A stretch of 64,000 nt of DNA from Candidatus Dormiibacterota bacterium (GCA_036732145.1 DAINCY010000001.1:5197-69196); one strand, 5' to 3'; counted from the first letter of the stretch, positions 3,029-59,481 are shown. Notes: generated by a model not told the origin, from the sequence alone. A program made the numbers and translations.

Positions 3029-3079
3029 AGATCAAAGTATGACAACGGGGGGCCGAAGTGACGGCAGTCGCCCGCCCCG

Positions 3080-3718
3080 GTGACGTGGGCGACAATCAGC
3101 GAGGTGCCCCACTATTTCGACCGCGAGCCGCTGGCACCCTCCCATCCACGTGAGGTGGTGCTGAGGCTGCCGGATGTCACCGTGGGGCTGCACAGTGACG
3201 CGGGGGTCTTCGGACACCGAGCGGTGGACAGCGGCACCCTGTTTCTGCTGCGGCGCGCTCCGCCGCCTCCTCAGGCGGGCGACATCCTCGACCTGGGGAC
3301 CGGGTACGGGCCGATCGCTGTCGCGCTGGGTCTGCGCGCTCCGAAGGCGCGGGTGTGGGGCGTCGACGTCAACAGGCGCGCCCTGGAGCTGACATCCCGT
3401 AACGCCGCCGCCTCAGGAGCAACCAATGTGGTGGCCGCCACCCCCGAGGAGGTCCCCAGCGGGGTGCGGTTTGCCGCCATCTACAGCAATCCGCCCGTGC
3501 GCATCGGACTGCCGCTGTTGCATCCGCTGCTGACCGGCTGGCTCGACCGGCTCCTTCCTGATGCGGCGGCGCACCTCGTGGTGCACCGCCACCTCGGCTC
3601 GGACTCTCTGGCGCGGTGGCTCGTCGGCGAGGGTTTCGGCGTGGAACGAGTCGCCTCTCACGATGGCTTTCGCATCCTGCGTGTGCAGCCCCGACCAGCC
3701 GTGGGGGATGATCGCTGA
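3080..3718 (+). CDS. Class I SAM-dependent methyltransferase (RsmC/MTS small-domain type, likely rRNA or protein methyltransferase)
   Basis: DLGTGYGPIAVAL glycine-rich SAM motif and a YSNPP (NPPxR-like) catalytic motif. 212 aa. Confidence 0.65.
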   Translation: MTWATISEVPHYFDREPLAPSHPREVVLRLPDVTVGLHSDAGVFGHRAVDSGTLFLLRRAPPPPQAGDILDLGTGYGPIAVALGLRAPKARVWGVDVNRRALELTSRNAAASGATNVVAATPEEVPSGVRFAAIYSNPPVRIGLPLLHPLLTGWLDRLLPDAAAHLVVHRHLGSDSLARWLVGEGFGVERVASHDGFRILRVQPRPAVGDDR

Positions 3719-5158: not shown

Positions 5159-8100
5159 TCAGCTCCGACGTCCTGCGCCCCAAGCCTCGCGATCGGGAGC
5201 CCGCTCGCGCCGGGTTTCGAGGCGGTAGGCGCCGGCACCGAGCAGAGCCTCGACGGTGCGTTCCAGTCCGGGGCCGGGTTCCACTGTGAAGCCGTCATCG
5301 AGCGCGATGTCGTCGATGGACTCCGCGCTCTCGACGTGGATGAGCACGGGTGCGTCGCCGCGGTGCTCGGCGATCGCCTTGTGCAGGGGCGCGACCAGGT
5401 GATGCTGGTGAGGTCCAAGGCGGAAGTGCACCAGGCTGTTGCGCCGCCACCCGACCAAGCGCGGGTCATCGATGGCAAAGATGGCGTCGGCTCGTATCTT
5501 GGCTGGCTCGCTCTCGCGTTCCTCGTCGTCTGCGCTGTTGGGCGCCGGCCTGGCGGTCTCCACCTTCCCGCGGATGACCACCACCGCATCGGGGCGCAGC
5601 AGTTCCGCCACCTCCTCGAAGACGCGGTTGAAGACCACCACCTCACAGGCCCCGGTCAGGTCCTCGATCTGCAGGAATGCCATGCGCTGCCCGGTGGTGC
5701 TCTTGCGTGGCACGAAGGCGCGCACGTCGCGAATGCAGCCGCCCACCTGGACGACCAGGCCGTCGAGGTGCGCCCCCAACTCGTTGATCGAGGTGTCGAT
5801 GCGCTCCTGCAGGGTGGCGGCGATGCGGCGCAATGGGTGATCACTGAGGTACATGCCGAGCAGGTCGCGTTCCCACGCCAGCCAGGAATCATCGCCGCGG
5901 TTCGGCTCCCCGTTGTCACCGTCTGGCGCCACGTGCGGCACCAGGATGCCAATGATGTCGACGGCGTCGCCGAAGAGCGACGTCTGCCCGAGGTCTCGCT
6001 CCCGCCGCACTGCTGCGGCGTGGTCCATGGCCGAGTCGAGCTGGCGGAGCAGCGCGTGACGGTCACCGAGGGGATCGAGAGCGCCGCACTGGATGAGCGA
6101 CTCCATCACACGACGGTTGAGGTCACGGCTCTCCACGCGCATGCAGAGGTCGAGGAGGCTGGTGAACGGACCAGCCTGGTCGCGCGCCTCGATGACGGTC
6201 TCGGTGACGCTGTTGCCAACGTTCTTGACGTGCTGCAGTCCGAAGAGGATCTCACCGCCGGCGGCATCGCCCACCACGAAGCCGGCGCCACTGCGATTGA
6301 TGTCCGGCTTGTGAACCACGAGCCCGTGCGCGTGCGCGTCGAGGATGGTCTGCTTCAGCTTGTCGAAGTCGCCGCCGCGGCTGTTGAGCAGCGCCGCCAT
6401 GTACTCGAGGGGGTGATTGGCCTTCAGGTACGCGGTCTGGTATGAGATGAGTCCGTAGGCGACGGAGTGCGCCTTGTTGAAGCCGTAGCCTGCGAAGTGA
6501 GCCATCAGGTCGAAGAGTTCGGTGGCTCGATCCGCAGCAATTCCGTTGGCGGCCGCGCCGGCGACGAACTTCTCGCGCTGCTTGGCCATCTTCTGCTTGT
6601 CCTTCTTGCCCATGGCCCCACGCAGCAGATCGGCTTCGCCAAGCGTGAAACCCGCCACCGCCTGGGCGATCTTCATCACCTGGTCCTGGTACACCATGGT
6701 GCCGTGGGTCTCGGCGAGCACTGGATCGAGCAAGGCCTCGAGGCCGGCCGGGTATTCGACGGGCAGCTCGCCACGCTTGCGCTTCATGTACAGGTCGACC
6801 ACGCCGCCCTCGATGGGGCCGGGCCGGTTGAGCGCCACCGCCACGCCAAGGTCTTCGAGCGAGCGGGGCTGCATGTCGATGAGGATCCGCTTGGCGAAGG
6901 TGGCTTCGAGCTGGAAGACGCCGTGCGTGTCCGCCTTGCAGAGCAGCGCGTAGGTGGCAGGATCGTCCAACGGAATGTCATCGATGTCGATGACCTGTCC
7001 TGTGGACCGCTCGACCATGCGCAGCGCCTCCTCGATGACGGTGAGGTTGGTGAGGCCGAGGAAATCGATCTTGAGAAGGCCGACCTTGGCGATCCCCTCC
7101 ATGTCGAACATGGTCACGGCGCTGCTGCGGTCACCGGTGGTGGAGCGCTGCAGCGGCACGATGTTGGTGAGCGGCTCGGCGCCGATGACGACGCCGGCGG
7201 CATGAGTCGACGCGTTGCGGCAGATGCCCTCCAGACGGCGTGCGTTGTCAATGACCTGACGCGCCCAGCCCTCGCTCTCGTACAGGCCGCGCAGTTCCCG
7301 GCTGTCCGCAAGCGCTTTGTCCAGAGTGATCTTGACGCTCATCGGCACCAGCTTGGCGAGACGGTCGACGTCGGGCAATGGCACGTTGAGGGCGCGACCG
7401 ACGTCGCGGATGGCGGCGCGGGCCGCCATGGTCCCGAAGGTGATGATCTGAGCAACGTGGTCCTCGCCGTACTTCCCCTGCACGTACTGCAGGACGCGGT
7501 CGCGCCGGCGGTCGTCGAAATCGATGTCGATGTCGGGCAGCTCGACGCGCTCACGGTTGAGGAAGCGCTCGAAGATGAGACCGTACCGGAGCGGACAGAT
7601 GTTGGTGATGCGCAGCACGTACGCAACCAGTGAACCGGCCGAGCTGCCGCGCCCTGGGCCGACCACGACCCCATCGCAGCGGGCAGCTCGGATCAGGTCC
7701 CAGACGATCAGGAAGTACGGCGCAAAGCCGGTGGTCTCGATGACATCCACTTCCATGGCCAGCCGCTCTCTGGCCTCGGTCGTGATGTCCTCGCCGTAGC
7801 GTTCGCGCAAGCCCGCCTCACACAGCTCCCGGAGATAGCTCTCCGCCGTGTGCCCCGGCGGTATCGGCGAGTAGGTGGGAAGCAGGTTGCCGCCGAGCTT
7901 CAGCTCCAGGTTGCACAGGTCTGCGACCGCGAGCGTGTTGGACACCGCCTCGCCGTAGGCAGCGAAGCGATCTCGCATCTGCGCGCCGGTGGTAACCGAG
8001 AAATGCGGTCCAGCGAAACGGAAGCGCTTCTCATCCGCGCGTCGCGCCTGCGTCTGGATACAGAGGAGGATGTCGTGTGCCTCGGCATCATCGACACCGA

Positions 8101-47430: not shown

Positions 47431-47970
47431 TCACTTGCCCATGTCGAGTGGCAGCTCGCGGCCGCCGTCGGCGCCGCGGCGCCGGCGGCGCGGCGCGTCG
47501 GGAGGCTTGGTCCCGGGGGGATTGGCGAGCACCTCCTCGATGGTGGCGCGCATCTGCTCGACATCCCGGAAGGAGCGGTACACGGAGGCGAAACGCACGT
47601 AGGCGATCTCGTCAAGAGTGCGCAGGTGCTGCATCACCATCTCGCCCACCTCCAGACTGCGCACCTCGGTGACGTTGCGCGAGCGCAACGCATTCTCCAC
47701 GTCGTCGACAATGACCGCCAGCTGGGCTGAGGCGATGTCGCGCTTGGTCGAAGCGTTGACCAGGCCGCCGAGCAGCTTGCGGCGGTTGAACTCTTCGCGC
47801 CGGCCGTCCTTCTTCACCACCCACAGCGGGACCGCCTCGACGCGCTCGTAGGTGGTGAAGCGCTTGTGGCAGGCCAGGCATTCGCGGCGGCGGCGAATCG
47901 CCTCACCGGTCTCGGAGTCGCGCGAGTCGACAACCTTGGACTCCGGCTCAGAGCAGTATGGGCACTTCAT
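47431..47970 (-). CDS. nrdR: Transcriptional repressor NrdR
   Basis: Zinc ribbon [18 protein letters not shown] ... [18 protein letters not shown]-cone domain. Confidence 0.9.
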
Positions 47971-48027
47971 GGCACAAACAGGCACCCCCCCGCGTCGCGG
48001 GGGGTTCCTGACGTGAGAACGTGGTCG

Positions 48028-49128
48028 CTAACGGCGATCGCGCAGGAACGCCGGGATGTCGAGATCATCCGCGTTGGGCGGCGTGGCCGAACGGCCGCCG
48101 ATGGTGAACGCCGGCGACGCGGCCGCCACCGAACGCGCCGCGGGCTCGTACGCGAGCGTTCCGAGAACGTCGATGTGGCCGGTGAAACCGGTGGCGATCA
48201 CGGTGATCTTCACCTCTCCCTTCATGGCTTCGTCGATGACGGTGCCGAAGATGATCTGGGCATCGGGGTCGGCGGACTCGCTGACCAGCTGGGCCGCCTC
48301 GTTGACCTCGTACAGGGTGAGGTCGGGGCCGCCGGTGACGTTGAGGAGGATGCCCTTGGCACCGGCGATGGTGGTCTCAAGCAGCGGGCTGGCCACGGCG
48401 TCGCGCGCGGCGTCGGCGGCGCGGGTATCCCCGTTGCCGAAACCGATACCCATCAGGGCAGCGCCCTGGCCGGACATGATCGCCTTGACGTCCGCGAAGT
48501 CGAGGTTGATGAGGCCCGGGAAGACGATCAGATCACTGATGCCCTGCACGCCCTGGCGGAGCACGTCGTCTGCGAGCTTGAACGCCTCGGTGATCGGGGT
48601 CCGCTTGTCGACCACCTGCATGAGCCGCTCATTGGGGATTGTGATGAGGGTGTCGACGCGTCCCTGCAGGTTGGCGATGCCGTCGTCTGCGGCGCGCTGC
48701 CTCTTGAGGCCCTCGAACTTGAACGGCTTGGTGACCACGCCGATGGTGAGAGCCCCCTGTTCGCGGGCGATCTCGGCGACCGCCGGGGCTGCCCCGGTGC
48801 CGGTGCCACCGCCCATGCCGGCGGTGACGAACACCATGTCACAGTCCTCGAGCAGCTTGGTGAGCTCCTCTCGCGACTCCTCGGCCGCCTCAGCTCCACG
48901 GACGGGGTCGCCGCCGGCACCAAGGCCTCTGGTCAGCTTGGACCCGATGCGCACCTTCTTGTGGGCGTTGCTCAACTGCAGCGCCTGGTGGTCGGTGTTC
49001 ACGGCGATGAACTCCACGCCCTTGAGGCGGCTCTGGATCATGCGGTTGACGGCGTTGCTGCCTCCGCCGCCGACGCCCACCACCTTGATGCGGGCATTTC
49101 CCTCCAACGTCCTGTCGAGATCGTTCAT
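48028..49128 (-). CDS. ftsZ: Cell division GTPase FtsZ
   Basis: Tubulin signature [28 protein letters not shown]7 loop NLDFADV. C-terminal conserved peptide [10 protein letters not shown]. Start at [10 protein letters not shown]. Confidence 0.95.
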
Positions 49129-49261
49129 GGGCGTCTCCTCACGCTGCCTGCTCTTGGGACGCAGCGAAACCTTCCCCGCACGCGTCGTTTCATCATCGTT
49201 GCCGCCACTGATGGGCTGCGAGGGCGTGGCGCCGTCGTCGTGCCCGTATAACTTCATCCGT

Positions 49262-50500
49262 TCAGAAAAGTTCACGCAACCACCGTCCAAATCGGTCCCC
49301 GACGTGCTGTCCGTTGCCGTTCTGCGCCCTGCCGGTCAGCGCCACATTGCGACCGATCCGCCCCCGCGCACCCCAGCGCAGAAGACCGACGACGGTGGCA
49401 TGGTGCGGACCGCTGATCTCGTCGTTCATGCCGTGCACACCGTTGGGCGCGGCGACACGGGCGGGCAGGTCGGTCACCTGCTGTATCACCTCTGCGAAGC
49501 CGCGAAGAAGGGCGCCCCCGCCCGTCAGCACGATCCCGCCGGGAAAGCTGCTCGGGGGCCCGGCTTTCTCCACCTGCTCGGCGATGAGCTGGGCCATCTC
49601 GCGTGCCCGCGGGCCGATGATCTCGGCGAGAAATCGCTGCGGAACGTTGACAGGCTCGTCGTACCCCATCGGCGTCAGCTGCACCTCCGCGTCGGCGGGC
49701 AACGTCAGTTGCAGGCAGTGCCCGTAGGCGCGCTTGGTCGCCTCGGCAGTCTCGAGGTCGCAGCGCAGCCCCACCGCCAGATCCCCGCTCACGTGGTTTC
49801 CGCCGACTGGGATGACGACTGTGTGGATGATGCTGCCCTTGGCAAACACGGCGACGTCGGTGGTGCCCCCGCCGATATCGGCGACGACCACGCCACGATC
49901 CAGTTCGTCCTCGCCGATGACCGCCTCAGCCGAGGCGAGCACCTGAAGGACCAGGTCCTCCACGTCCAGTCCCGCCTTGTGCACCACCTTGACCACGTTC
50001 TGAATGGCGGTGTTGGTGCCTGTGATGATGTGCGCGTCGACCTCCAGGCGCGTGCCGGCCATGCCCAGCGCATCGCGCACGCCCTCCTGGCCGTCGATGG
50101 TGAACTGCTGTGGGAGGACGTGAAGGATCTTGCGATCCGACGGCACGCTGACGGCTCGCGCGGCCTCCACCGCGCGCGTGACGTCGGCGTCGCGCACCTC
50201 GCGGTGGCCAGCTGACACGGCGACCACGCCGCGCGAGTTCTGCGAGGTGATGCTGGTGCCGGCGAGACCGACCACGGCAGAGTCGACCGGGACTCCGCTC
50301 ATCTGTTCGGCAAGATCAACCGCTTCGGCGACCGCCTCGGCGGCCCTGTCGATCTCGATGATCGCCCCCTTGCGGATGCCGCGGGAGGGGGCCTCGCCCA
50401 CACCGATGACACGCAGCCCGGTGCTGTCCAACTCGGCGATGGCGCAGCAGACCTTCGTCGTTCCTAGATCGAGTGCAAAGACGCGGCGAGAACGGGTCAC
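49262..50500 (-). CDS. ftsA: Cell division protein FtsA (actin-like ATPase)
   Basis: [15 protein letters not shown] phosphate-1 motif and [12 protein letters not shown] phosphate-2. GTG start at 50500 with a GGAGG Shine-Dalgarno 9 nt upstream on the transcribed strand. Confidence 0.9.
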
Positions 50501-50833
50501 ACTGGCCTCCGAGTATAGCCGGAGCCCTCCCCCAAAGATAGGGGTTGTCAGGCACAAAACCGCAAGATGCTGAGTTTGCGGTCGGAGTATGCCACAAGAT
50601 GTGGCCTGTCCAGACCTAACCCACCGAGCCCGCCAAGCCGATGAAACATCCCTAACCGACGGGGCCGGAGGGCCCACCGGAACAGCTCACGGCGGTCAGT
50701 GAGTGGCCGTGTTTAACGCAAACAGGGCCTCGCCACTGCACCGTTCGGACGAGACCCTGTCGGCCGCAGCCCCAGTCGGGCCACGCAGCGCCGGTCATCA
50801 TCGCACCGGCAACCAGCTCTGTAAACCCGTGGA

Positions 50834-52534
50834 TCAGCCGACAGGCAGCACCGCGGTGTGCTCGATGCGCACCGCCTTCAGGTCACCCGGCTCCAGTCCC
50901 AGCAGCGCAAGGATGGTTGGTGCGATCTGCGTGGTCTCCACGGCGCGGTCATCGATCACGTGCGTGGCAACCGACCCGCCCGACACCACCAGCGGGACGT
51001 CGCGGTCCTGCGGGTTGGCACCGCCATGCTCGGCGATCTTGCCCATCTTGCCGGTGTAGACGCTGCCGAGCTGCGCGATGCCCAAGACGTCAGGAACGCG
51101 CGCGTCGCCGGGCGCCACATTGAAATAGTCAGCCGCCGCCTCTCCGGCGTGGACCGCCCTCAGTCCCGACTGGCTGAACGGCTTGGGGTTGCCGTTGATG
51201 TCGTTGCCGGTACCAGAATGCCCGAGCAGGAAGGTGCGCGCGAAGGACGTCGCCGCCGCCGAGCGATCGTTGAGCCAGATCATCATTCCATCGTCATCGA
51301 TGGCGAACGCCACCAAGGCTGCCGTCGACGAGGGATGGGCCGCCTGCCAGGCCGCGTCCAGCGCGTCGATGATGGGGCCGTCGGGGATGCGGGTCAGTCC
51401 GGCCGGCGTCTGCGGCGACTGGCCGTGCTTGGCGGACAGGATGATGGTGGTGCTCTTGTCGAGGTGCCGGTCCCGGATGGCGTCGCGGAAGCTGCCCACC
51501 TGGGTGTTGATGTAATCGAGGGCACGCACCAGCAGCGGTCCAGGGGTCACACCGTCGGCGAGGTAGCCGCCGGGTAGGCCGTTGGACACCGGCAGCTTCT
51601 CCGCGGTGGAGACGGTCTGGAAGTTCATCCCGAAGATCGAGGGTGTCCCCACAACGGTGCTGCCGCTGTGGTCGTAGCCGTTGATCTCATTGATCACCGC
51701 CTGCACCTTGTAGCTGTCGTACTGCATGGTGAGGGCGTTGTCGGTGGTCCAGTCGTTGCTCGAGCCCAACGTCGGCGCGTTGCTGTTGATCTCGGGCGTG
51801 AACAGGTCCTGGATGCCCGCGCCCGACGGCCCGTTGAGGACCTCGTACGCGGCGTGCTTGTCCGACCAAGCAGTGCGCAGTCCGGCGGCGCGTGCCACCT
51901 CGAACACCGTGTTGACCTTCAGGTAGGAGTGCGGGTACACCGGCTTGCAGGTGACCGGGTCGACGGGCAGCTTGGACGGATCGAGAAGGGTGGTTGCGTT
52001 GCCGGTGAGCTGCAGGATGCTGCCGGGCAAGTTGGCCAGGCCCTGGCCGGCATCCAGGGAGAGCGGGTTGAGGTCGGCCGCCTCGAAATAGGTCACCTCG
52101 ACGCCCGGCGTCGCGCCCGCACAGTTGGTGGTGCCCGCCGGAAGCAGGGCGTGGCTGTAGCTGTCGTCGTAGTAGATGCCGGTTGATGACGGGTTGCCGC
52201 CGGTCACCTGGCCGACCATCCCGGGGAACGAGTCCGAGGGAACCGGCGTCACCGCGTTGCTGAATTCGACGCCGGCGCCGACCAGCCTGGCAAGGGCGGA
52301 GTTGGGATGGTGCGCGACGTACCAGGTGAGGTCGGTCTGGTGCAGGCCGTCGACCGAGAGCAGCAGGACATGACGGTCCTGAGCACCGTCGTGGGCCAAT
52401 ACCGTGCCGGAGACGCCCAGCGACAGGGCGGTCAGACCGAGGGTGGTCAGCGCGGCGACACAACGGACAACTTTTCCTGGCACCGGTGGCCCTCCTGGAG
52501 CAACGACCGCGGACGCGGTGCGGGGCACCGCCAA
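50834..52534 (-). CDS. Secreted alkaline-phosphatase-superfamily enzyme (type I phosphodiesterase / nucleotide pyrophosphatase, PF01663-like)
   Basis: N-terminal signal peptide. Metal-site motifs LLLSVDGLHQTDL and TPVPSDSFPGMVGQVTGGNPSSTGI. 566 aa. Confidence 0.6.
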   Translation of the reverse strand: MAVPRTASAVVAPGGPPVPGKVVRCVAALTTLGLTALSLGVSGTVLAHDGAQDRHVLLLSVDGLHQTDLTWYVAHHPNSALARLVGAGVEFSNAVTPVPSDSFPGMVGQVTGGNPSSTGIYYDDSYSHALLPAGTTNCAGATPGVEVTYFEAADLNPLSLDAGQGLANLPGSILQLTGNATTLLDPSKLPVDPVTCKPVYPHSYLKVNTVFEVARAAGLRTAWSDKHAAYEVLNGPSGAGIQDLFTPEINSNAPTLGSSNDWTTDNALTMQYDSYKVQAVINEINGYDHSGSTVVGTPSIFGMNFQTVSTAEKLPVSNGLPGGYLADGVTPGPLLVRALDYINTQVGSFRDAIRDRHLDKSTTIILSAKHGQSPQTPAGLTRIPDGPIIDALDAAWQAAHPSSTAALVAFAIDDDGMMIWLNDRSAAATSFARTFLLGHSGTGNDINGNPKPFSQSGLRAVHAGEAAADYFNVAPGDARVPDVLGIAQLGSVYTGKMGKIAEHGGANPQDRDVPLVVSGGSVATHVIDDRAVETTQIAPTILALLGLEPGDLKAVRIEHTAVLPVG

Positions 52535-52583
52535 CAGGTCGCGAGGCTATGCGCGGCGCGGAGGTGAGGGTGGTAAGTGAGAG

Positions 52584-53672
52584 TTAAGAATCCGCGGTGT
52601 CAACTGCTGGCGACGGCGTCAGCACCAGCTTGCCCCGCCGCTCCCCGCCGGCCAGCGCCACGAAGGCTTCCGCGGCGCCGGCGAGTGGCCGCACCGAGTC
52701 GACGAGAGGATGCACCCGCCCGGTGGCGCACAGCTCGACGACGCGCGACAGCTCCTCACGCGTTCCCATGGTGCTGCCGGCGATGGTCAGTTGGCGCCAG
52801 AAGATGCGGTTGAGCTGCGCCGGCGGATTGGCTCCAGTGGTTGTCCCTGACACCACCACGACGCCGCCCGGCCTCACCGCGCGCAACGAGAAGTCCCAAG
52901 TGGCCTCTCCGACGGTGTCGAGAACGGCATCCACGCCGCCGCCGCTGGCAGCGATCACCTGCTTCACGGCGTCGCGATCGGTGGCGAACGCGGCCGCGGC
53001 CCCGAGCTCAACAGCTGCGCGCCGTTTGGCTTCGTCACGCGAGGTGGCGAACACCGTGAGGCCGCCGGCTGTCCCCAGGAGGATGGCTGCGCTGGCCACG
53101 CCCCCGGTGGCGCCGTGGACGAGCACTCGTTGGCCCGGGCGCAGCGCCGCTCTCACGAACAGCATCCGATAGGCGGTGAGGTAGGCCGTCGGCAAACAGG
53201 CCGCCGTGACACAGTCGACGCTCTCGGGAAGCGCAAGAATGTTGCTGACCGGGACCACGAGGCGTTCTGCGAGCGTGCCCGGGAATGGCGGTTCGCTGAG
53301 CAGGCCGATGCGCGGGCAGTGAAGTTCGTCACCGGAACGGCAGGCCGGACACCGGCCGCAGGTCATGACGCTGTGGACCACGACCGCGGCCCCGACGGCG
53401 GGGGCACCCTCGGGCGGCTCGCCCCCGCCGTAGCCAAGAACGAAGCCGGCCGCATCGCAGCCGAGGACCTGCGGTTCGGTCAGCGGGCGCGAGCCGACCC
53501 CGCGCAGGGTCCAGAGATCGTGGTGATTGAGGGCCGCCGCGGCGACAGCGATCAGCACCTCTTCCCTGCCGGCAACGGGATCGGTGACCTCGGCGATCTC
53601 GAGGTTGCTGAGCGGGTCGTCACCGCCGTATCGGACCGCACGAACTGCCAGCACGGCCGCCAACGGTAGCAT
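52584..53672 (-). CDS. Zinc-binding MDR-family alcohol dehydrogenase / quinone oxidoreductase
   Basis: GroES-like domain with Zn-ligand cysteines (CGRCPACRSGDELHC). Rossmann motif VLVHGATGGVASAAILLG. Start inferred at the internal ATG at 53672. Confidence 0.75.
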   Translation of the reverse strand: MLPLAAVLAVRAVRYGGDDPLSNLEIAEVTDPVAGREEVLIAVAAAALNHHDLWTLRGVGSRPLTEPQVLGCDAAGFVLGYGGGEPPEGAPAVGAAVVVHSVMTCGRCPACRSGDELHCPRIGLLSEPPFPGTLAERLVVPVSNILALPESVDCVTAACLPTAYLTAYRMLFVRAALRPGQRVLVHGATGGVASAAILLGTAGGLTVFATSRDEAKRRAAVELGAAAAFATDRDAVKQVIAASGGGVDAVLDTVGEATWDFSLRAVRPGGVVVVSGTTTGANPPAQLNRIFWRQLTIAGSTMGTREELSRVVELCATGRVHPLVDSVRPLAGAAEAFVALAGGERRGKLVLTPSPAVDTADS

Positions 53673-53715
53673 CACGGTGGCGCCGAACCGCCGAGGTCCG
53701 TCACCATCATGGGCC

Positions 53716-54603
53716 ATGCGCATCGATAGCCTGTTCAGGCAGGACGAGCCGCTCTTCTCCTTCGAGTTCTTTCCGCCGCGGGACGACGAGGGTGCCGACA
53801 GGCTGTTCGACACCATCGCGACACTGGGCGACCTGTCGCCGGCATTCGTGTCCGTGACCCACGGCGCCGGCGGCAGCCAGCGCGATGACCGAACCGTCCG
53901 GCTTGTGGAACGCATCGGCCGCGAGACCGGGCTGCTGCCGATGGCCCACCTCACCTGCCGCGACTCGACGATCGCGGAGCTCCTCACGGAGATCCGCCGA
54001 TACCAGGACGTGGGGATCGACAACGTCCTAGCGCTGCGCGGTGATCCACCCAACGGGGAGGGACGGTTCGTTCCCCACGAGGGCGGCCTGCGCTACGGCA
54101 GTGAGCTGGTGCGCCTCCTCCACGACAACGCCGACATCTGTGTCGGCGCCGCCTGTTCTCCCGAGAAGCACGTCGAGTCGGCGAGCCTGGACGACGACGT
54201 CGTCGCCGCGTGCCAGAAGGTGGAGGCGGGTGCGAGCTTCCTGATCACCCAGCTCTTCTTCGACAACAGCCGCTACTTCAGCTTCGTGGCGCGGGCGCGG
54301 GCGGCTGGTGTGGACGTGCCCATCGTGCCCGGGATCATGCCCATCACCAACGTCGACCAGGTCTACCGCTTCACCGCGAAAATCGGCGCGTCGATTCCGA
54401 CGGCGCTCCGCGCTGCGCTGGAGACGCGGATGGACGATCCCCACGCGGTCATTCAGCTGGGCGTTGCCTGGGCCACGTTGCAATGCAGCGAGCTGCTCCG
54501 CGCCGGTGCGCCCGGCGTGCATTTCATCACGCTGAACCGCTCTCCGGCGACCCGCGCCATCCTCACGGCACTGCGGATCGCCCGACCCTGGGAGGCCGGC
54601 TGA
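53716..54603 (+). CDS. metF: 5,10-methylenetetrahydrofolate reductase
   Basis: MetF pattern FSFEFFPP, HLTCRD and ITQLFFD. 295 aa from the internal ATG. Confidence 0.85.
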   Translation: MRIDSLFRQDEPLFSFEFFPPRDDEGADRLFDTIATLGDLSPAFVSVTHGAGGSQRDDRTVRLVERIGRETGLLPMAHLTCRDSTIAELLTEIRRYQDVGIDNVLALRGDPPNGEGRFVPHEGGLRYGSELVRLLHDNADICVGAACSPEKHVESASLDDDVVAACQKVEAGASFLITQLFFDNSRYFSFVARARAAGVDVPIVPGIMPITNVDQVYRFTAKIGASIPTALRAALETRMDDPHAVIQLGVAWATLQCSELLRAGAPGVHFITLNRSPATRAILTALRIARPWEAG

Positions 54604-54640
54604 GGGCGAAGCTGGGAGGTCCGCCCGCCCAGTCAGAACA

Positions 54641-55777
54641 TCAGCCGTGCGCGGTCGGCGGCGGCGGAAGCGTGAAGACCAAGGGGCTCGGGGTGGGACG
54701 CGGGGTTGGGGCAGGCGTCGCGGTGGGGGTCGGCGTCGCGGACACGGAGGGGATGGATGGACCAACGCTGGTCGCCGGCGTCGATGCCTTCAGGGAGCTG
54801 CCCGCGATGTCGCGGCCCAGCGACGCCGGCTCACCTGGGTGACCACCGATCGCAGGTGCTGTGGGGTTCTCGAGGTCGACGTATCCGAAGGCGGGGTGCG
54901 CCAGGTCAAGGCGTCCGTTGAGGGCGGCCAGCACCGCCAGCTGTCCGGGAATGGCAGCCAGGGCGTCACTGCTGTCCAAGGCCCCGAAGATCGCCTGCCA
55001 GCCACTGCTGCACCACGCCGAGAGCACGTTGCTGTTGCTCAGCACAAAGGCGTCCAGGGTGCAGCCGTAGACAGACGCCCACCGCCGGGCGGCACTGGCG
55101 AGGACATCGGCCAGGCCGTTCATCACGGGCTGCTGGGTCCCGGGGCGATAGTCGAGGAGCAGCGGCACGCCCCTCTCTGCCGCCGCGGTCGACTGAGTGA
55201 GTGGGAGCGTGGCTCCATTGGCGGCGACGAACGTGCTCTGGGCGCCGTGGCGGAGAAGCAGGTCCGGCTGCCATTCGGTGACCGCGATCTGCACGGTCGA
55301 CGGCAGCTGGGTGGTGACCGTGGCAGAGCGGACCCAGGGAAGCCGGGCGATCCGGGAACGGATCGCCTCACCGTCCACTGTGAAGAGGCTCGACTGAGGC
55401 ACGCGAGCGGCTGCGAGCACGGCGGCGCGGCTGAGCAGATGGTCGCCGGTGACATCCACAGTGTCGACGCGAAAGCCGGGAGCGGTGAGGAGCGCGGCGA
55501 GCAGGCCAACCTGGGCGAGCAGAAGGGCGGCGCCGACCAACCGGCGCAGCAGTGGTCCACGCCGACGTTCTGCGGCCGCCACCGGTTGCCGGCTGGCTCC
55601 GTGCTGACGGCGCCGCGATGAGGGCTGCAGCGGTACCCCGGCAGGGACGTGAAATCGACGGCCCATGCGCGGTCCGTCCACCAGGCCGGCGGCGATGACG
55701 CGGATCTGTGCTTGGCGCGCGCCGGCGTCGTCGAGCACAGGGCTTGTGGGAGGGCGCTCTTTGAGGTTCTGGGGCAT
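54641..55777 (-). CDS. ftsQ: Cell division protein FtsQ/DivIB (POTRA domain), with a Pro/Thr-rich C-terminal tail
   Basis: Basic cytoplasmic N-terminus, a single TM helix (LVGAALLLAQVGLLAALL) and a POTRA region (FRVDTVDVTGDHLLSRAAV). Position in the dcw cluster supports the call. Confidence 0.7.
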   Translation of the reverse strand: MPQNLKERPPTSPVLDDAGARQAQIRVIAAGLVDGPRMGRRFHVPAGVPLQPSSRRRQHGASRQPVAAAERRRGPLLRRLVGAALLLAQVGLLAALLTAPGFRVDTVDVTGDHLLSRAAVLAAARVPQSSLFTVDGEAIRSRIARLPWVRSATVTTQLPSTVQIAVTEWQPDLLLRHGAQSTFVAANGATLPLTQSTAAAERGVPLLLDYRPGTQQPVMNGLADVLASAARRWASVYGCTLDAFVLSNSNVLSAWCSSGWQAIFGALDSSDALAAIPGQLAVLAALNGRLDLAHPAFGYVDLENPTAPAIGGHPGEPASLGRDIAGSSLKASTPATSVGPSIPSVSATPTPTATPAPTPRPTPSPLVFTLPPPPTAHG

Positions 55778-55877
55778 CGAGAGGAGGACGTGAGCAAGGA
55801 CGTTCGGCCCGGGCGCCGGTCCGCACAGTATGGGACCGATTGACGCACCGCGACGGATTGCGCGGACCCCGGACGGG

Positions 55878-57527
55878 TCAGGCAGCCCCCAGGTAGGTGT
55901 CGGGAAGGTCGTTGGCGAACAGGACGGCATCGCCGGCGCCGGCGATGCGACCGATCATCTCGGTGGCCTCCGCGAGCGACCGCACCACGTGGACGCGGTC
56001 GTCGGACATGCCGCCGGCGCGCAGGCCGTCTCGCAGAGCGCGCGCCGGTCGCGCGTCCATGACGATGACGTGGTCGCAGACGCGGGCGGCGTGCTCACCG
56101 TACCTGCGGTTCTCCTCGTCCTCGACAGCTCCCAACTCAACCAGGCCGGGGGTGACGAGGATGCGCGACCTCGCCTCGAGCTGCGACAGCACCTCAAGCC
56201 CGTTGTGCACGCCCACCGGGTTGGCGTTGTAGGAGTCGTCGATGACGGTGATGGCATTGCCGGTGGGAACGGGTTGGAGGCGATGATCGACCGGGCGCAG
56301 CGAGGCCACCTCGGCCAGCGCGGGGTGGAGAGGCAGACCGAGCCGGTGCACAGCCGCCAGGGCCGCACTGACGTTGAGCACCTGGTGACGACCGAGGAGC
56401 GGCAGCTCGAGATCATGGTGCACTCCGGCTGCTGGCCATCGCCACGTGAAGCGCGAGCCCTGTCCCGTGATCTGGACATCCTCGGCCACAACATCGAGAT
56501 CGCCTGTCCCCGCAATGCCGTAGCGGATCACCTCATGTCCTGCTGCCCGGGCCCTGGCCGCCAGGGCAGCGCCCCACTCGTCTCCCGCGTACACCAGCGT
56601 AAAGCCATCCGGCGCCAGCGCGTCGATGGTTTCGTAGAGGGCGCTGCTGATGCGCTCGAGGCTGCCAAAGCGCTCCAGGTGCTGCGGCCCGACTGAGGTG
56701 ACCAGAGCGTGACGTGGTCGCACAAGAGCGCAGATGGACGCGATCTCTCCGGGAGCGTACGCGTCCATCTCGACGATGAAGGTGCGGTGATGCTCGTCGA
56801 GGACGTCGTTGACCGTGCGGCACACGCCCATCAGGGTGTTGAAGCTCTTGGGGGTCGCCAGCGTGGGGCCGTACTGCTCCAGCATGTGCGCCAGGATGTG
56901 CTTGGTCGAGGTCTTCCCGTAGCTTCCCGCCACCGCGATCACCAGCGGCTGGAACCGTTCGAGCCGGAGCCGGGCGCGTCGCAGGAAGCCGCGCCGCACC
57001 CCCGCCTCGATCGGTGCGTTGAGGATGTTGGCGGCCACCAGCACCCCCATGCTCAGCGCCGTGAACCCGAGAGACAGCAGGGTGGACAGGGCGCCGGCGA
57101 CCCACACGGGACCGATGGACACCGCCAGCGAGACCAGGGCGGCGAGCAGTGCGCCGAGGACGGCGGCGGTCGCCAGCATGCGGCGCAGCCGCGGGGTGTA
57201 CACCAGTTCCTTCTTGGGCCGCAGCCATCGCCAGAGGACGTGAGCCGCGCCGACCCCGCCGGCCCATGCGGCCGCCACCGCGACGCGCAATCCCGGCCTG
57301 CTGAGGTCGGTGATCGCGAACACAGTCACCACCGCAACAGGGGTGGTGGCGACCATCACGCAACGATGGAGCAGCCAGCGGCGCGTGGCGCCCCAGGCGA
57401 GCAGCCGTGCTGCCTCGTACTCCTCGATCTGATACATCCGAGCCGCAACCAGGGCAGCGCGACCAAGCAGCGCCATCCAGGCAGCGCCCGCGACCGCGAC
57501 CAGCGCACCCTGGAGCGCGGCGGTCAC
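55878..57527 (-). CDS. MurF-like Mur ligase (D-alanyl-D-alanine-adding enzyme signature) with an N-terminal polytopic membrane domain
   Basis: Mur ligase P-loop VIAVAGSYGKTSTK. MurF-specific C-terminal motif IDDSYNANP. The first ~190 aa contain 4-5 hydrophobic helices in place of a soluble MurF N-domain. The ATG overlaps the hydrolase stop as ATGA. Confidence 0.7.
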   Translation of the reverse strand: MTAALQGALVAVAGAAWMALLGRAALVAARMYQIEEYEAARLLAWGATRRWLLHRCVMVATTPVAVVTVFAITDLSRPGLRVAVAAAWAGGVGAAHVLWRWLRPKKELVYTPRLRRMLATAAVLGALLAALVSLAVSIGPVWVAGALSTLLSLGFTALSMGVLVAANILNAPIEAGVRRGFLRRARLRLERFQPLVIAVAGSYGKTSTKHILAHMLEQYGPTLATPKSFNTLMGVCRTVNDVLDEHHRTFIVEMDAYAPGEIASICALVRPRHALVTSVGPQHLERFGSLERISSALYETIDALAPDGFTLVYAGDEWGAALAARARAAGHEVIRYGIAGTGDLDVVAEDVQITGQGSRFTWRWPAAGVHHDLELPLLGRHQVLNVSAALAAVHRLGLPLHPALAEVASLRPVDHRLQPVPTGNAITVIDDSYNANPVGVHNGLEVLSQLEARSRILVTPGLVELGAVEDEENRRYGEHAARVCDHVIVMDARPARALRDGLRAGGMSDDRVHVVRSLAEATEMIGRIAGAGDAVLFANDLPDTYLGAA

Positions 57528-58294
57528 GAGGTCTCGCGGCGCAGGAAGACGTTGACGATGCGACAGAAGCGGTCGGGCTCCTGCGCATACGCGAAGTGAC
57601 CACAGCCGTCGAACACCACCAGGCCGGCGTCGGGTATGAGCAGCTCCATGAGGCGCGCGTCACTCAGCGGCGTCTCCTGGTCGCGCGCACCCCAGATCAA
57701 CAGCGTGGATGCGGCCAGTCGCGAGAGCTGGGGGCGCAGGTCCGCGTTGACCAGCCGCACCATGCTGGCTCGAACCGTTCCCGTCGCTGCCCGGTAGTCC
57801 TCGCTGCCCCGCAGCTCAGCACGACGCTGGGCCAGGCGGCGAAGTGGCGCGGGCAGCCAAGGCCGCAGTGAGGCGGCGCGCAGCGCCTTGAAGGTGCCCA
57901 CCCGCCACCGGTGGCCAAGCCCATGGCGCGGCCGGATCCCCGCGCTGTCGGTGAGGACCAGGCGATCCACCCTGTGCGGGTGGGCGGACCCCACGGCGAT
58001 GGCCACCCGGCCGCCGTTGGAGTGCCCGACGATATGGGCGCGCTCGATGCCCAGGCGATCGAGCAGGGCGATCACCCACTCGGCATAGTCGTCCACCCCC
58101 CAGGCCTGAGGCGGAGGTGGGGTGGCCCCGAAGCCGGGCAGGTCGGGGGCGACGATGCGGTAGCCGGGGAGCCGCTCTGCGATGGGGGCCATCAGCTCCT
58201 TGCTCGCACCCCACCCGTGGAGCAGGAGCAGCGCCGGCCCGCTGCCCTGATCGAGCAGGGCTGCGGCCGGGTCCTCTGCAATCGCGACCATCAC
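57524..58294 (-). CDS. Alpha/beta-hydrolase fold protein
   Basis: LLLLHGWGAS oxyanion region, nucleophile elbow GHSNGG, C-terminal His (GCGHFAY). Overlaps ddl and the MurF-like gene by 4 nt each. Confidence 0.8.
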   Translation of the reverse strand: MMVAIAEDPAAALLDQGSGPALLLLHGWGASKELMAPIAERLPGYRIVAPDLPGFGATPPPPQAWGVDDYAEWVIALLDRLGIERAHIVGHSNGGRVAIAVGSAHPHRVDRLVLTDSAGIRPRHGLGHRWRVGTFKALRAASLRPWLPAPLRRLAQRRAELRGSEDYRAATGTVRASMVRLVNADLRPQLSRLAASTLLIWGARDQETPLSDARLMELLIPDAGLVVFDGCGHFAYAQEPDRFCRIVNVFLRRETS

Positions 58295-59481
58295 GGGACG
58301 GTCTTGGCGCCTCCGCCGCCGAGCATCCAGTGATCGAACACCACCGTGCTCTCACCGCGTCGGGCGTGACCTCGACGAGCAATCTCGATCAGCTCGTCGA
58401 GCAAGGCTGTGAAGGAGAGTCCCGCCGGCTCGAAGAGATAGAACGAGAGGGAGCCGGGAATGGGATTGACCTCGTTGACCACAAAGCTCTGAGCTTCGGT
58501 GTCGACAAGGAAGTCGATCCGGGCGACGCCCGATGCTCCCACTGCTGCAAAAGCCGCCAGGGCCGCGGCGCGAACGCGCGACGCGAGCTCCTCGTCGAGC
58601 GGCGCCGGGATGATTCGCTGTGCGCCCTTCATCCCCGCCGAGGTGCTCGACGACTTGGCCGAAGGGGCCCGGTATTTGTCGTCGTAGCTGAGCAGGCCAC
58701 GCTTGGTCGGCTGTTCGAGGAGCGAGGTGCGGGCGTCGATCCCATCGCCAAGAACTGCGCAGTTGATCTCGACGATCTGCTCCTGAGCGGCCTCGACGAG
58801 ACAGCGTTGATCGTAGGTGAGGGCGACGTCGACGGCGTCGCGCAGCTCTGATCGATGTGCGGCCCGCGACACGCCGATGCTCGACCCCAGGCTGACCGGC
58901 TTGACGTAGAGCGGGTACGACGCCAGTGCCTCGGCCGCGTGCACGGCCTCATCAACGTCGTCGCGCCAGCGGTCGCGGTCGATGACGACATCGCCGAGCA
59001 CCGGCAGATCCGCGGCGCGAAGCACCGTCTTGGCCAGCGACTTGTCCATGGCCACCGCGGAGGCGGCCACACCGCTGCCGGTGTATGGAATCCCCGCCAT
59101 GTCGAGAAGGCCCTGCAGGCTACCGTCCTCCCCGAAGCTGCCGTGCACCAGTGGCATGGCGACATCGACGTCCACCGCAGCGGCGCCGGCACGTCGGAGG
59201 AGGCCGCGGCGCGAGGCCCCCACGGGCAGCAGCGCCAGCCCTGGGCGTGAGGGGTCGATGACGGGGGTGACCACGGTGCAACCGGCGAGCAGACTGTCCA
59301 CGTCGGCGAACCGATCCAGTTGAGTGAGGGGATCGCCTGTGTACCACCTGCCGTTCTTGGCGATGTACACCGGCACCGCGTGATGCCGGGGCGAGAGTGC
59401 AGCCAGCACCTGATGCGCGGTGATCACCGAGACCTCGTGCTCGACCGAACGGCTCCCGAAGATGGCGGCGACGGTGCTCAT
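58291..59481 (-). CDS. ddl: D-alanine--D-alanine ligase
   Basis: N-terminal AAIFGSRSVEHEVSV. ATP-grasp motifs. SYDDKY omega-loop region. C-terminal NEVNPIPG. 396 aa, slightly extended. Confidence 0.9.
   Translation of the reverse strand: MSTVAAIFGSRSVEHEVSVITAHQVLAALSPRHHAVPVYIAKNGRWYTGDPLTQLDRFADVDSLLAGCTVVTPVIDPSRPGLALLPVGASRRGLLRRAGAAAVDVDVAMPLVHGSFGEDGSLQGLLDMAGIPYTGSGVAASAVAMDKSLAKTVLRAADLPVLGDVVIDRDRWRDDVDEAVHAAEALASYPLYVKPVSLGSSIGVSRAAHRSELRDAVDVALTYDQRCLVEAAQEQIVEINCAVLGDGIDARTSLLEQPTKRGLLSYDDKYRAPSAKSSSTSAGMKGAQRIIPAPLDEELASRVRAAALAAFAAVGASGVARIDFLVDTEAQSFVVNEVNPIPGSLSFYLFEPAGLSFTALLDELIEIARRGHARRGESTVVFDHWMLGGGGAKTVP

Follow-up and report, generated by a model that had tools for sequence, protein, structure and literature searches.

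The cluster of division and cell-wall genes (dcw) is among the most conserved gene arrangements of bacteria, and its genes ftsQ, ftsA and ftsZ usually bring to mind a single contiguous run. A 64,000-nucleotide (nt) stretch of DNA from a Candidatus Dormibacterota genome, which we call the window, departs from this pattern in the block from 50501 to 55877, where other genes, including one on the opposite strand, lie between ftsQ and ftsA. The locus thus raises the question of when this break arose and of how ftsA and ftsZ are expressed downstream of it. The answer that we favor on balance, from comparisons of sequence and gene order, is that the split is phylum-wide, that ftsA, ftsZ and nrdR form an autonomous unit under control of the NrdR type, and that this unit is preceded by a control region made of two modules, one with a pair of NrdR-type boxes and the other with a structured RNA.

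The break between ftsQ and ftsA across Dormibacterota

The genes of the window were identified by means of an open reading frame (ORF) map together with Pfam and NCBIfam scans. Read from high to low coordinates, the minus strand carries in this order ftsW, murG, murC, murB, ddl, an α/β hydrolase gene, a Mur-ligase paralog and ftsQ. This is followed by metF on the plus strand, and then, again on the minus strand, by a gene for a Zn-type oxidoreductase of the MDR alcohol-dehydrogenase family (hereafter MDR), a phosphodiesterase-like gene (PDE), ftsA, ftsZ and nrdR, with yggS, lspA, rluD, gmk and coaBC lying past nrdR on the same strand. The features of the block and of the genes downstream of it are as follows:

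54641-55777, minus strand: ftsQ, POTRA-type (POTRA_1, PF08478, 59 bits; the ortholog in locus L202 is called as a protein of 374 amino acids)
54604-54640, no strand: 37-base-pair (bp) gap between the convergent stop codons of ftsQ and metF, with no strong terminator predicted
53716-54603, plus strand: metF, methylenetetrahydrofolate reductase (TIGR00676, 306.3 bits against a cutoff of 293.7, full-length profile)
52584 to about 53672, minus strand: MDR (ADH_N and ADH_zinc_N domains; start uncertain by about 18 nt)
50834-52483, minus strand: PDE, a putatively secreted protein of the alkaline-phosphatase superfamily (PF01663, 54 bits, and a weak C-terminal Sulfatase match)
49262-50500, minus strand: ftsA (TIGR01174, 404 bits)
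48028-49128, minus strand: ftsZ (TIGR00065, 438 bits)
47984-48005, minus strand: GC-rich hairpin in the ftsZ-nrdR spacer, ~14 nt ahead of the ATG of nrdR
47431-47970, minus strand: nrdR, Zn-ribbon and ATP-cone repressor (PF22811 and PF03477), directly after ftsZ

The gene content, strands and distances given for this block in the original prediction, which had been made from the window by itself, are borne out by the ORF map and the family scans, with gaps of 4140 bp between ftsQ and ftsA, 333 bp between the PDE and ftsA (50501-50833) and 100 bp between the Mur ligase and ftsQ. Its statement that the intervening genes (the wedge) are not mobile also holds, as mobile-element genes were found neither in the wedge nor flanking it in the window. 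The GC content is 0.65-0.72 across the region, similar to that of the flanks and with no anomaly of composition or GC shift, and when the surroundings of the PDE and the wedge were searched for scars of an insertion or for repeats, only weak chance repeats turned up. The description of metF as divergently oriented needs a correction; with respect to ftsQ, which is the terminal gene of the upstream mur/fts transcription direction, it is convergent (37-bp gap), and it is divergent only from MDR (about 43-61 bp).

To place this arrangement among relatives we used an FtsA scan with one genome per species, which recovered 80 loci of this type with FtsA identities of 64-97%, most of their records being titled Candidatus Dormibacterota, and we mapped 18 proteins of the window on these loci by tblastn. 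The two genes ftsQ and ftsA were never adjacent in the 68 loci that show both, and the gap between them ranges from 1544 to 8858 bp. Taking the strand of ftsA as plus, the order ftsQ(+), metF(-), MDR(+), ftsA(+) is present in 57 of the 63 loci that have at least 5 kb of upstream sequence; exceptions to the order include four loci without MDR and one without metF. Even the deepest lineage (L073, 64% FtsA identity) shows an MTHFR-like gene on the minus strand (MTHFR, methylenetetrahydrofolate reductase) and MDR on the plus strand, followed by ftsA.

The original prediction had taken the wedge to be an insertion in this genome, and had itself proposed a comparison with relatives, in which a shared order would speak for an ancestral arrangement. 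Both close and distant relatives do show the same gene order, which is common to essentially all sampled Dormibacterota down to 64% FtsA identity, and because they share the succession of ftsQ, metF, MDR and ftsA the wedge is not an insertion in this genome. The metF-MDR wedge and the ftsQ-ftsA split are almost certainly ancestral to the sampled Dormibacterota, to which the word 'ancestral' is confined here, with outgroup phyla lying outside the sample. The break of the division and cell-wall cluster between ftsQ and ftsA would accordingly predate the divergence of the sampled lineages, and the core of the wedge would have consisted of metF placed tail-to-tail with ftsQ, and MDR placed head-to-head with metF and on the strand of ftsA. 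A literature search returned no relevant account of the dcw split in Dormibacterota or of a link between NrdR and ftsZ.

Eight of the records (L020, L022, L023, L024, L041, L062, L068 and L072) bear the titles Saccharimonadales, Acidiferrales, Angelobacter, Solirubrobacteraceae or 'Actinomycetes'. Their contigs carry the Dormibacterota-type locus, with 72-80% FtsA identity and the same synteny, and they are probably mis-binned contigs or mislabelled assemblies.

NrdR-type boxes in the proximal module

The original prediction had treated 50501-50833 as a simple leader of ftsA. This segment instead holds both a structured-RNA unit, which is distal to ftsA, and a proximal block with paired NrdR-type boxes. 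The last ~115 nt before ftsA are near-invariant among genus-level relatives, the remaining intergenic DNA is unalignable, and the key motifs of the block can still be recognized at 72% FtsA identity. A search for a conserved RNA fold in the 115-bp block found none (-0.7 kcal/mol), and hence the constraint on it acts at the level of DNA. Hairpins picked out in it by eye (CCCCTT/AAGGGG, and one masking the Shine-Dalgarno sequence) found no support across clades and were discarded. The elements of the block are:

50592-50607, minus strand: NrdR-type box 1, AGGCCACATCTTGTGG, with 6/6 key positions (C4 A6 A8 T9 T11 G13)
50586-50591, minus strand: predicted extended -10 element, TGg-CATACT, overlapped by box 1 (from sequence and alignment)
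50560-50575, minus strand: NrdR-type box 2, ACTCAGCATCTTGCGG, with 5/6 key positions and G at position 6
50512-50517, minus strand: TATACT/TACACT element that precedes the ftsA start by 11-16 nt, the -10 element predicted for a proximal promoter

The NrdR operator has been described as two partially palindromic 16-bp boxes with the key positions C4, A6, A8, T9, T11 and G13, separated by a linker of 15-16 bp (PMC13584703), which sets the box centers an integer number of helix turns apart. In the window the linker between box 1 and box 2 is 16 bp. Of 79 loci, only the two or three that diverge most lack the full set of six key positions in box 1; in box 2 the set is complete, A6 included, in 20 loci, and the window and most lineages carry G6. 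Searches relied on the expression C.[AT].A[AT].[AT].G, the two cores being 20-23 nt apart (PMC12051234). With at most one mismatch 76 of the 79 loci fit this core expression, and 70 of these 76 have a core-to-core spacer of 22 nt, which corresponds to the 16-bp linker; in the fitting loci the pair stands at a fixed distance of 61-65 nt from the ftsA start codon. A search for strict pairs on both strands of 2.8 Mb found 42, of which 41 are the ftsA site, where ~5 would be expected by chance, and the probability of a strict chance match in a 160-nt region is ~4e-4 as estimated from the frequency of single cores. Other candidates for these sequences (MraZ-type repeats, DnaA boxes, or -35-like elements at the two boxes) were rejected, as both spacing and sequence fit NrdR far better.

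The TGg-CATACT element is present in the clade of the window and in the largest clade, and is degenerate in others. The TATACT/TACACT element is universal across the loci of the phylum, and the box pair lies upstream of it. A GGAGG Shine-Dalgarno sequence precedes ftsA in some clades and is absent in others, and close relatives use either GTG or TTG to start the gene, the codon being GTG in the window (50498-50500) and TTG at the same position in some of them; there are hints that the ftsA transcript might be near-leaderless in some lineages.

The candidate regulator, the nucleotide-sensing repressor NrdR, is encoded nearby. In 66 of 67 loci nrdR is the gene after ftsZ and shares its strand, and the nrdR product in the window matches solved NrdR structures over the full length and contains the VVDSR motif with D15 and R17, the residues Asp15 and Arg17 having been reported to read C4 and G13 (PMC13584703). 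With nrdR following ftsZ behind operator-like boxes, the same gene string holds both repressor and operator, as in the nrdRJ operon of Streptomyces coelicolor. The hairpin between ftsZ and nrdR varies in sequence by lineage, although its stem is kept at the same place in most of them and a U-rich tail is seen only in some clades. Its end lies 10-20 nt ahead of the nrdR start codon, too close to accommodate a separate nrdR promoter. It is likely that this hairpin is a partial terminator or a stabilizer, and it would lower the expression of nrdR relative to ftsA and ftsZ.

Further evidence comes from a wider search with the box-1 pattern (ACATNTTGTG, 21-23 nt, ACATNTTGTG), which matched more than 120 metagenome contigs, against ~15 expected by chance in a rough estimate that assumes a metagenome collection of the order of 5e11 bases. 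Among 90 ORFs flanking these matches families of ribonucleotide reductases are enriched, the most frequent families being Ribonuc_red_lgC (7), ATP-cone (7), Ribonuc_red_lgN (6), NRDD (5), Ribonuc_red_2_N (4) and NrdR (2), and one of the loci is a class I reductase of Kribbella (L118). As the pattern retrieves reductase promoters, the box-1 type represents a genuine NrdR operator type of high-GC bacteria.

Two further sets of contigs deserve mention in their own right. In L159 a gene for a class II (B12-dependent) reductase with a Hint/intein domain (2387-3436, minus strand) stands beside an NrdR-type pair on a metagenome contig of 64% GC. A near-identical pair, ACATCTTGTGGTTTGTAACG...CGCTACATCTTGTG, recurs in four contigs from high-GC soil metagenomes (L091, 840-882; L151, 1031-1073; L154, 464-506; L189, 285-327), where it adjoins a gene for an extracytoplasmic function (ECF)-type sigma factor or a helix-turn-helix regulator and not a reductase. 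These pairs may represent further non-reductase targets or the site of an unrelated regulator.

In the operators of S. coelicolor nrdRJ and nrdAB and of Escherichia coli nrdAB, nrdHIEF and nrdDG (PMC9110341, PMC12051234, PMC13584703) we find the same partially palindromic 16-bp boxes with the six key positions, linker of 15-16 bp and overlap with promoter elements, which are predicted ones in Dormibacterota, and with S. coelicolor nrdRJ the Dormibacterota locus would also share the autoregulation that results from having nrdR inside the controlled gene string. It differs from the reductase operators in that the downstream genes are ftsA and ftsZ and in that box 2 has G6 in most lineages. NrdR-type sequences upstream of replication or cell-cycle genes are mentioned elsewhere, namely single boxes at the dnaA gene of Shewanella and at Pseudomonas topA, as cited in a preprint (bioRxiv 10.1101/2025.03.28.645925); as cited there these are single boxes of doubtful function, whereas the Dormibacterota site is a full pair with canonical spacing that is conserved in the phylum. 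No reductase genes are present in the 64-kb window or within ±10 kb of the 80 loci. Because the sequence, the spacing and the cognate protein agree with an NrdR operator and the location outside a reductase operon does not, we speak of a pair that would work like an NrdR operator on a new kind of target rather than of a classical member of the class.

Several observations weigh against assigning the pair to NrdR. A simple promoter scan gave only the small-RNA promoter (see below) in this region, and all promoters and terminators discussed here are predictions. The conserved A at position 6 of box 2 is replaced by G in the window and most lineages, and a change of A6 lowered the affinity of NrdR ~10-fold in E. 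coli (PMC13584703). A query with the Kribbella reductase (L118), aimed at a reductase promoter of Dormibacterota, gave no Dormibacterota among the matches listed. In E. coli and Pseudomonas aeruginosa paired NrdR boxes are reported only at reductase operons, with other hits regarded as mostly false positives (bioRxiv 10.1101/2025.03.28.645925), and for this reason the ftsA pair must be either novel or itself a false positive. The deepest loci, L073 and L075, keep nrdR after ftsZ without a recognizable box pair, and some of the metagenome matches to the box-1 pattern are not beside a reductase gene. Finally, since the ftsA site is inherited by descent, the many loci with it amount to approximately one evolutionary observation.

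In an alternative explanation the ftsA boxes belong to a different regulator (e.g. a DnaA-like or developmental one) or to an alternative sigma factor, and the likeness to NrdR is coincidental. It would account for the deviation of box 2 at position 6, for boxes at a non-reductase gene, where no paired NrdR boxes have been reported (10.1101/2025.03.28.645925), and for the several metagenome matches that adjoin non-reductase genes; in our own comparison the CCACA/TGTGG cores are also loosely like those of DnaA boxes. We nevertheless consider it rather unlikely, given six of the six key NrdR positions in box 1 and five or six in box 2, a 16-bp linker held in 70 of 76 loci, the low chance (~4e-4) of a strict match within 160 nt, the retrieval of reductase promoters by the box-1 pattern and the presence of nrdR in the same gene string.

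For control of ftsA-ftsZ by NrdR, the sequence comparisons suggest a chance that is even or slightly better. In such a mechanism NrdR loaded with dATP and ATP would bind the box pair, and the bound protein would repress ftsA and ftsZ, along with nrdR itself and the genes for ribonucleotide reductase, so that the synthesis of division proteins would follow the state of the deoxynucleoside triphosphate (dNTP) pool and of replication. The more specific proposal, that NrdR directly represses ftsA-ftsZ and its own gene in the operon through a canonical box pair, alongside an undescribed and phylum-specific small RNA, is offered tentatively, as a possibility a little short of evenly balanced.

The distal RNA unit and the transcription of ftsA and ftsZ

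The distal module of the control region lies between the PDE and the proximal block and consists of:

50797-50825, minus strand: promoter-like site of the RNA unit, TTTACA, 17 nt, TG-c-GATGAT (extended -10)
50715-50795, minus strand: structured RNA of ~75 nt with two hairpins and a U-rich tail, identified by covariation
50783-50767, minus strand: hairpin A of the RNA (consensus structure)
50760-50722, minus strand: hairpin B of the RNA, 13 bp with a 13-nt loop containing an invariant GGUGCAG
50722-50715, minus strand: U-rich tail of the RNA (from the sequence)

The promoter-like site sits directly past the PDE stop codon and was the sole sigma-70-like hit of a simple scan of 47900-56100. It is kept in kind across clades (GTAGAC, TGGACA or CTTGCG, 17 nt, TGcTACGGT or TAGGGT), and other clades retain its -35 and TGn-TAnnnT elements. 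When 62 distinct copies of the RNA are aligned, 20 consensus base pairs emerge, at which 96.2% of cells are paired as against 41-50% in slid controls. Nine of the pairs show compensatory double changes, e.g. U-A in 30 sequences versus C-G in 26, and the covariation score was reached by 0 of 500 shuffles; the secondary structure is therefore very likely to be real. A 23-codon ORF inside the RNA was considered and rejected, as the variation is compensatory for pairing and the indels in the loop are not multiples of three. A 17-mer from hairpin B occurs once per locus, always between MDR (or metF) and ftsA, and a search with a covariance model made from this alignment gives a single copy each for the window and for 69 loci. 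Searches against Rfam 15 gave no match to the element at E <=5 in the window or at E <=1 in six other loci; the BjrC68 and atpB matches in the region and its relatives were sub-threshold chance hits, none of them on the RNA element.

We read the distal element as a putative autonomous unit for a small RNA or a terminator. In its predicted own promoter, its two hairpins with a terminal hairpin and U-rich tail, its conserved single-stranded loop and its covariation it resembles small RNAs with an intrinsic terminator and the intergenic motifs of Rfam, and it differs from the catalogued Rfam motifs in being without a family match in Rfam 15. Its terminator would end transcripts from MDR and the PDE and so insulate ftsA from upstream transcription, and the small RNA may also have a regulatory role of its own.

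The same element could conceivably be a cis-acting leader of ftsA, i.e. a riboswitch or attenuator, with transcription starting at its promoter and read-through of hairpin B controlling ftsA and ftsZ. The unit is directed towards ftsA in 68 of 70 occurrences, usually ~200 nt upstream of it, hairpin B with the U tail resembles a regulatable terminator, and the 13-nt loop is invariant, all of which would suit such a leader. However, the covariance model places the unit on the strand opposite to ftsA in L005 (9724-9791, minus strand) and L012 (9720-9806, minus strand), and in L005 the promoter-like region, when the alignment is read in reverse complement, is inverted along with the RNA; the proximal control block is unchanged in both despite the inversion. 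Other ORFs intervene between the unit and ftsA in L021, L027, L044 and L080. In L001, L010, L011, L016 and L022 the covariance model did not detect the unit, and the proximal block is present, and no alternative anti-terminator pairing was found. On account of the inverted copies and the intervening ORFs we set the leader aside as unlikely, with some probability left for a cis-attenuator role in the majority orientation, and retain the autonomous unit. In L017 and L019 the unit remains beside ftsA at a distance of 3.8 kb from MDR.

Taken together, it is very probable that ftsA and ftsZ are transcribed independently of the upstream cluster. That they need promoters of their own had been part of the original prediction, and agrees with the near-invariance of the 115 bp before ftsA amid unalignable intergenic DNA and with the terminator-like RNA unit between the PDE and ftsA. 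From the wedge that separates these genes from the mur-ftsQ genes we infer that ftsA-ftsZ-nrdR is its own transcription unit, which probably continues into yggS-lspA-rluD-gmk; the comparisons show the gene order, the conservation, the RNA covariation, the fit of the boxes and the linkage of nrdR, and the transcription starts, the extent of the operon and the binding of NrdR are inferred. A different possibility is that MDR, with or without the PDE, forms one operon with ftsA and ftsZ that starts in the divergent region between metF and MDR, which would tie MDR to division and leave the conserved block as a mere modulator. MDR does share the strand of ftsA and lie immediately upstream of it across the phylum, with a gap of only 140-200 nt in some lineages. 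Yet a promoter and terminator RNA unit intervenes in most lineages, in others MDR and ftsA are separated by as much as 3.8 kb of unrelated genes, of which some have the opposite orientation, and the four loci without MDR keep the control block, making a single operon distinctly unlikely.

The PDE is the part of the wedge in the window with a different history. It is found at the ftsQ-ftsA interval only in the window, L004, L008 and L202. In a tree of FtsA, FtsZ, MDR and MetF the window groups with L004 and L008 and with L079 and L003, of which the last two are without the PDE. Homologs with 72-80% identity abound and are recorded as proteins of Dormibacterota, and L201 has a homolog of 73% identity in an unrelated context; the spacer between MDR and the PDE shares no sequence with the region upstream of that homolog. 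As judged from these comparisons the PDE is the sole recent part of the wedge of the window, and a PDE gene from inside the phylum has come, as a copy or by a move, to lie in the space from the MDR stop codon to the structured-RNA unit. The claim that three genes were inserted thus stands for the PDE, as a lineage-specific addition, and falls for metF and MDR, which have the same order in relatives.

The protein itself matches PF01663 with 54 bits (cutoff 23), in an alignment that covers just profile positions 1-68 of 342, and its homologs bear the name 'alkaline phosphatase family protein' in database records; as a profile-based prediction the superfamily assignment is secure. Its N-terminus resembles a signal peptide as judged by eye. 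The form of 549 amino acids with a GTG start at 52483 has an exact database match (P0001), and the form from the longest ORF (566 amino acids) gave no exact-sequence match in the database.

Other lineages have different genes in the interval. L019 has a gene of the HNH/DUF222 endonuclease type (6237-7493, by Pfam). On the basis of ORF translation only, there are antitoxin/PIN-like pairs in L056 (7149-7860) and L058 (7745-8549), an ORF resembling an α/β hydrolase in L034 and L051, an SRPBCC-like ORF in L021 (9310-9867, opposite strand) and in L027, and regulator-like and short-chain-dehydrogenase-like ORFs in L055. The interval appears to be a permissive landing site for accessory genes that differ by lineage; after the break of the operon it would tolerate insertions. 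An insertion of all three metabolic genes into a contiguous ftsQ-ftsA-ftsZ in this genome or its close relatives, forcing new ftsA-ftsZ promoters to arise in the leader, fits the gene order of the window and the truly lineage-restricted PDE, and from general knowledge of the cluster an insertion into the canonical arrangement presumably did occur deeper in evolution, but at the proposed level it is very unlikely. In almost all of the 80 loci, as far out as 64% FtsA identity, metF and MDR are found at this place and in this orientation, the control region of ftsA is just as old, and identities of 64-97% argue against these loci being one shallow clade.

Flanking genes, known systems and implications

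Upstream of ftsQ two genes set this cluster apart:

57524-58294, minus strand: α/β hydrolase (ORF map and family scans)
55878-57527, minus strand: Mur-ligase paralog with Mur_ligase_M and Mur_ligase_C domains, the final mur-type gene ahead of ftsQ

The second of these had been called MurF-like. It scores 202 bits against TIGR01143, below the MurF cutoff of 288.6, in a match that begins at profile position 64, and in place of the N-terminal substrate-binding domain, which is absent, it has ~190 amino acids of predicted hydrophobic membrane segments. By these profile comparisons the product of 55878-57527 is a Mur-ligase paralog that falls short of identification as MurF. The paralog and the upstream α/β hydrolase are kept together in most loci. 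Between murB and ftsQ of the window they form a three-gene module (55878-59481) with a long Ddl (396 amino acids). In L016, L022, L056-L059, L064, L067, L068, L071 and L080 the hydrolase and the paralog are both missing and Ddl is only 30-33% identical, and for this reason the three genes seem to come and go together; they could constitute a variant module for the peptidoglycan stem peptide.

In comparison with the canonical dcw cluster (...murC-ddlB-ftsQ-ftsA-ftsZ in E. coli), the window retains ftsW-murG-murC-murB-ddl ... ftsQ and ftsA-ftsZ in order and on one strand. It differs in the lack of contiguity of ftsQ, ftsA and ftsZ, with a 4140-bp gap that includes the opposite-strand metF and a break at the same place in 68 of 68 related loci, in the additional α/β hydrolase and membrane-anchored Mur-ligase paralog between ddl and ftsQ, and in the presence of nrdR between ftsZ and yggS.

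A closer precedent is found in Bacillus, which has dedicated ftsA-ftsZ promoters and a gap or a gene (sbp) between ftsQ (divIB) and ftsA (PMC3762067). As in Dormibacterota, ftsQ and ftsA of Bacillus subtilis and the B. cereus group are not contiguous and promoters for ftsA-ftsZ lie upstream of ftsA, those of Dormibacterota being predicted. Only a short stretch (sbp etc. or a 400-bp spacer), with no change of strand, separates the two genes in Bacillus, where longer transcripts from murB through ftsQ and ftsA to ftsZ persist (PMC3762067), whereas Dormibacterota have an opposite-strand metF, 1.5-8.9 kb of unrelated genes and a break that is fixed throughout the phylum. The split noted in the original prediction is thus real and less exceptional than was first implied, because separate ftsA-ftsZ promoters and intervening genes were already known in Bacillus (PMC3762067). 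The principle of separate promoters is not new; the size and age of the break, the opposite-strand gene and the phylum-wide fixation are what differ.

An uncultured soil phylum in which ftsA and ftsZ are permanently uncoupled from the rest of the cluster indicates that the dcw linkage is dispensable, and what appears to have replaced the linkage is a dedicated and deeply conserved control region. The distal module of this region is a candidate for a new, phylum-specific RNA family in a phylum without genetics. Should the assignment of the boxes to NrdR fail, the finding would shrink to an ordinary lineage-specific variant of gene order; the assignment can be checked with purified protein and a 60-bp DNA, for which no cultured strain of Dormibacterota is required. 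If it is correct, the ftsA site would be the first complete NrdR operator known outside reductase genes, a repressor reputed to be specific for reductases would have a regulon that reaches the division machinery, and there would be a direct transcriptional link between dNTP supply or the state of replication and cell division.

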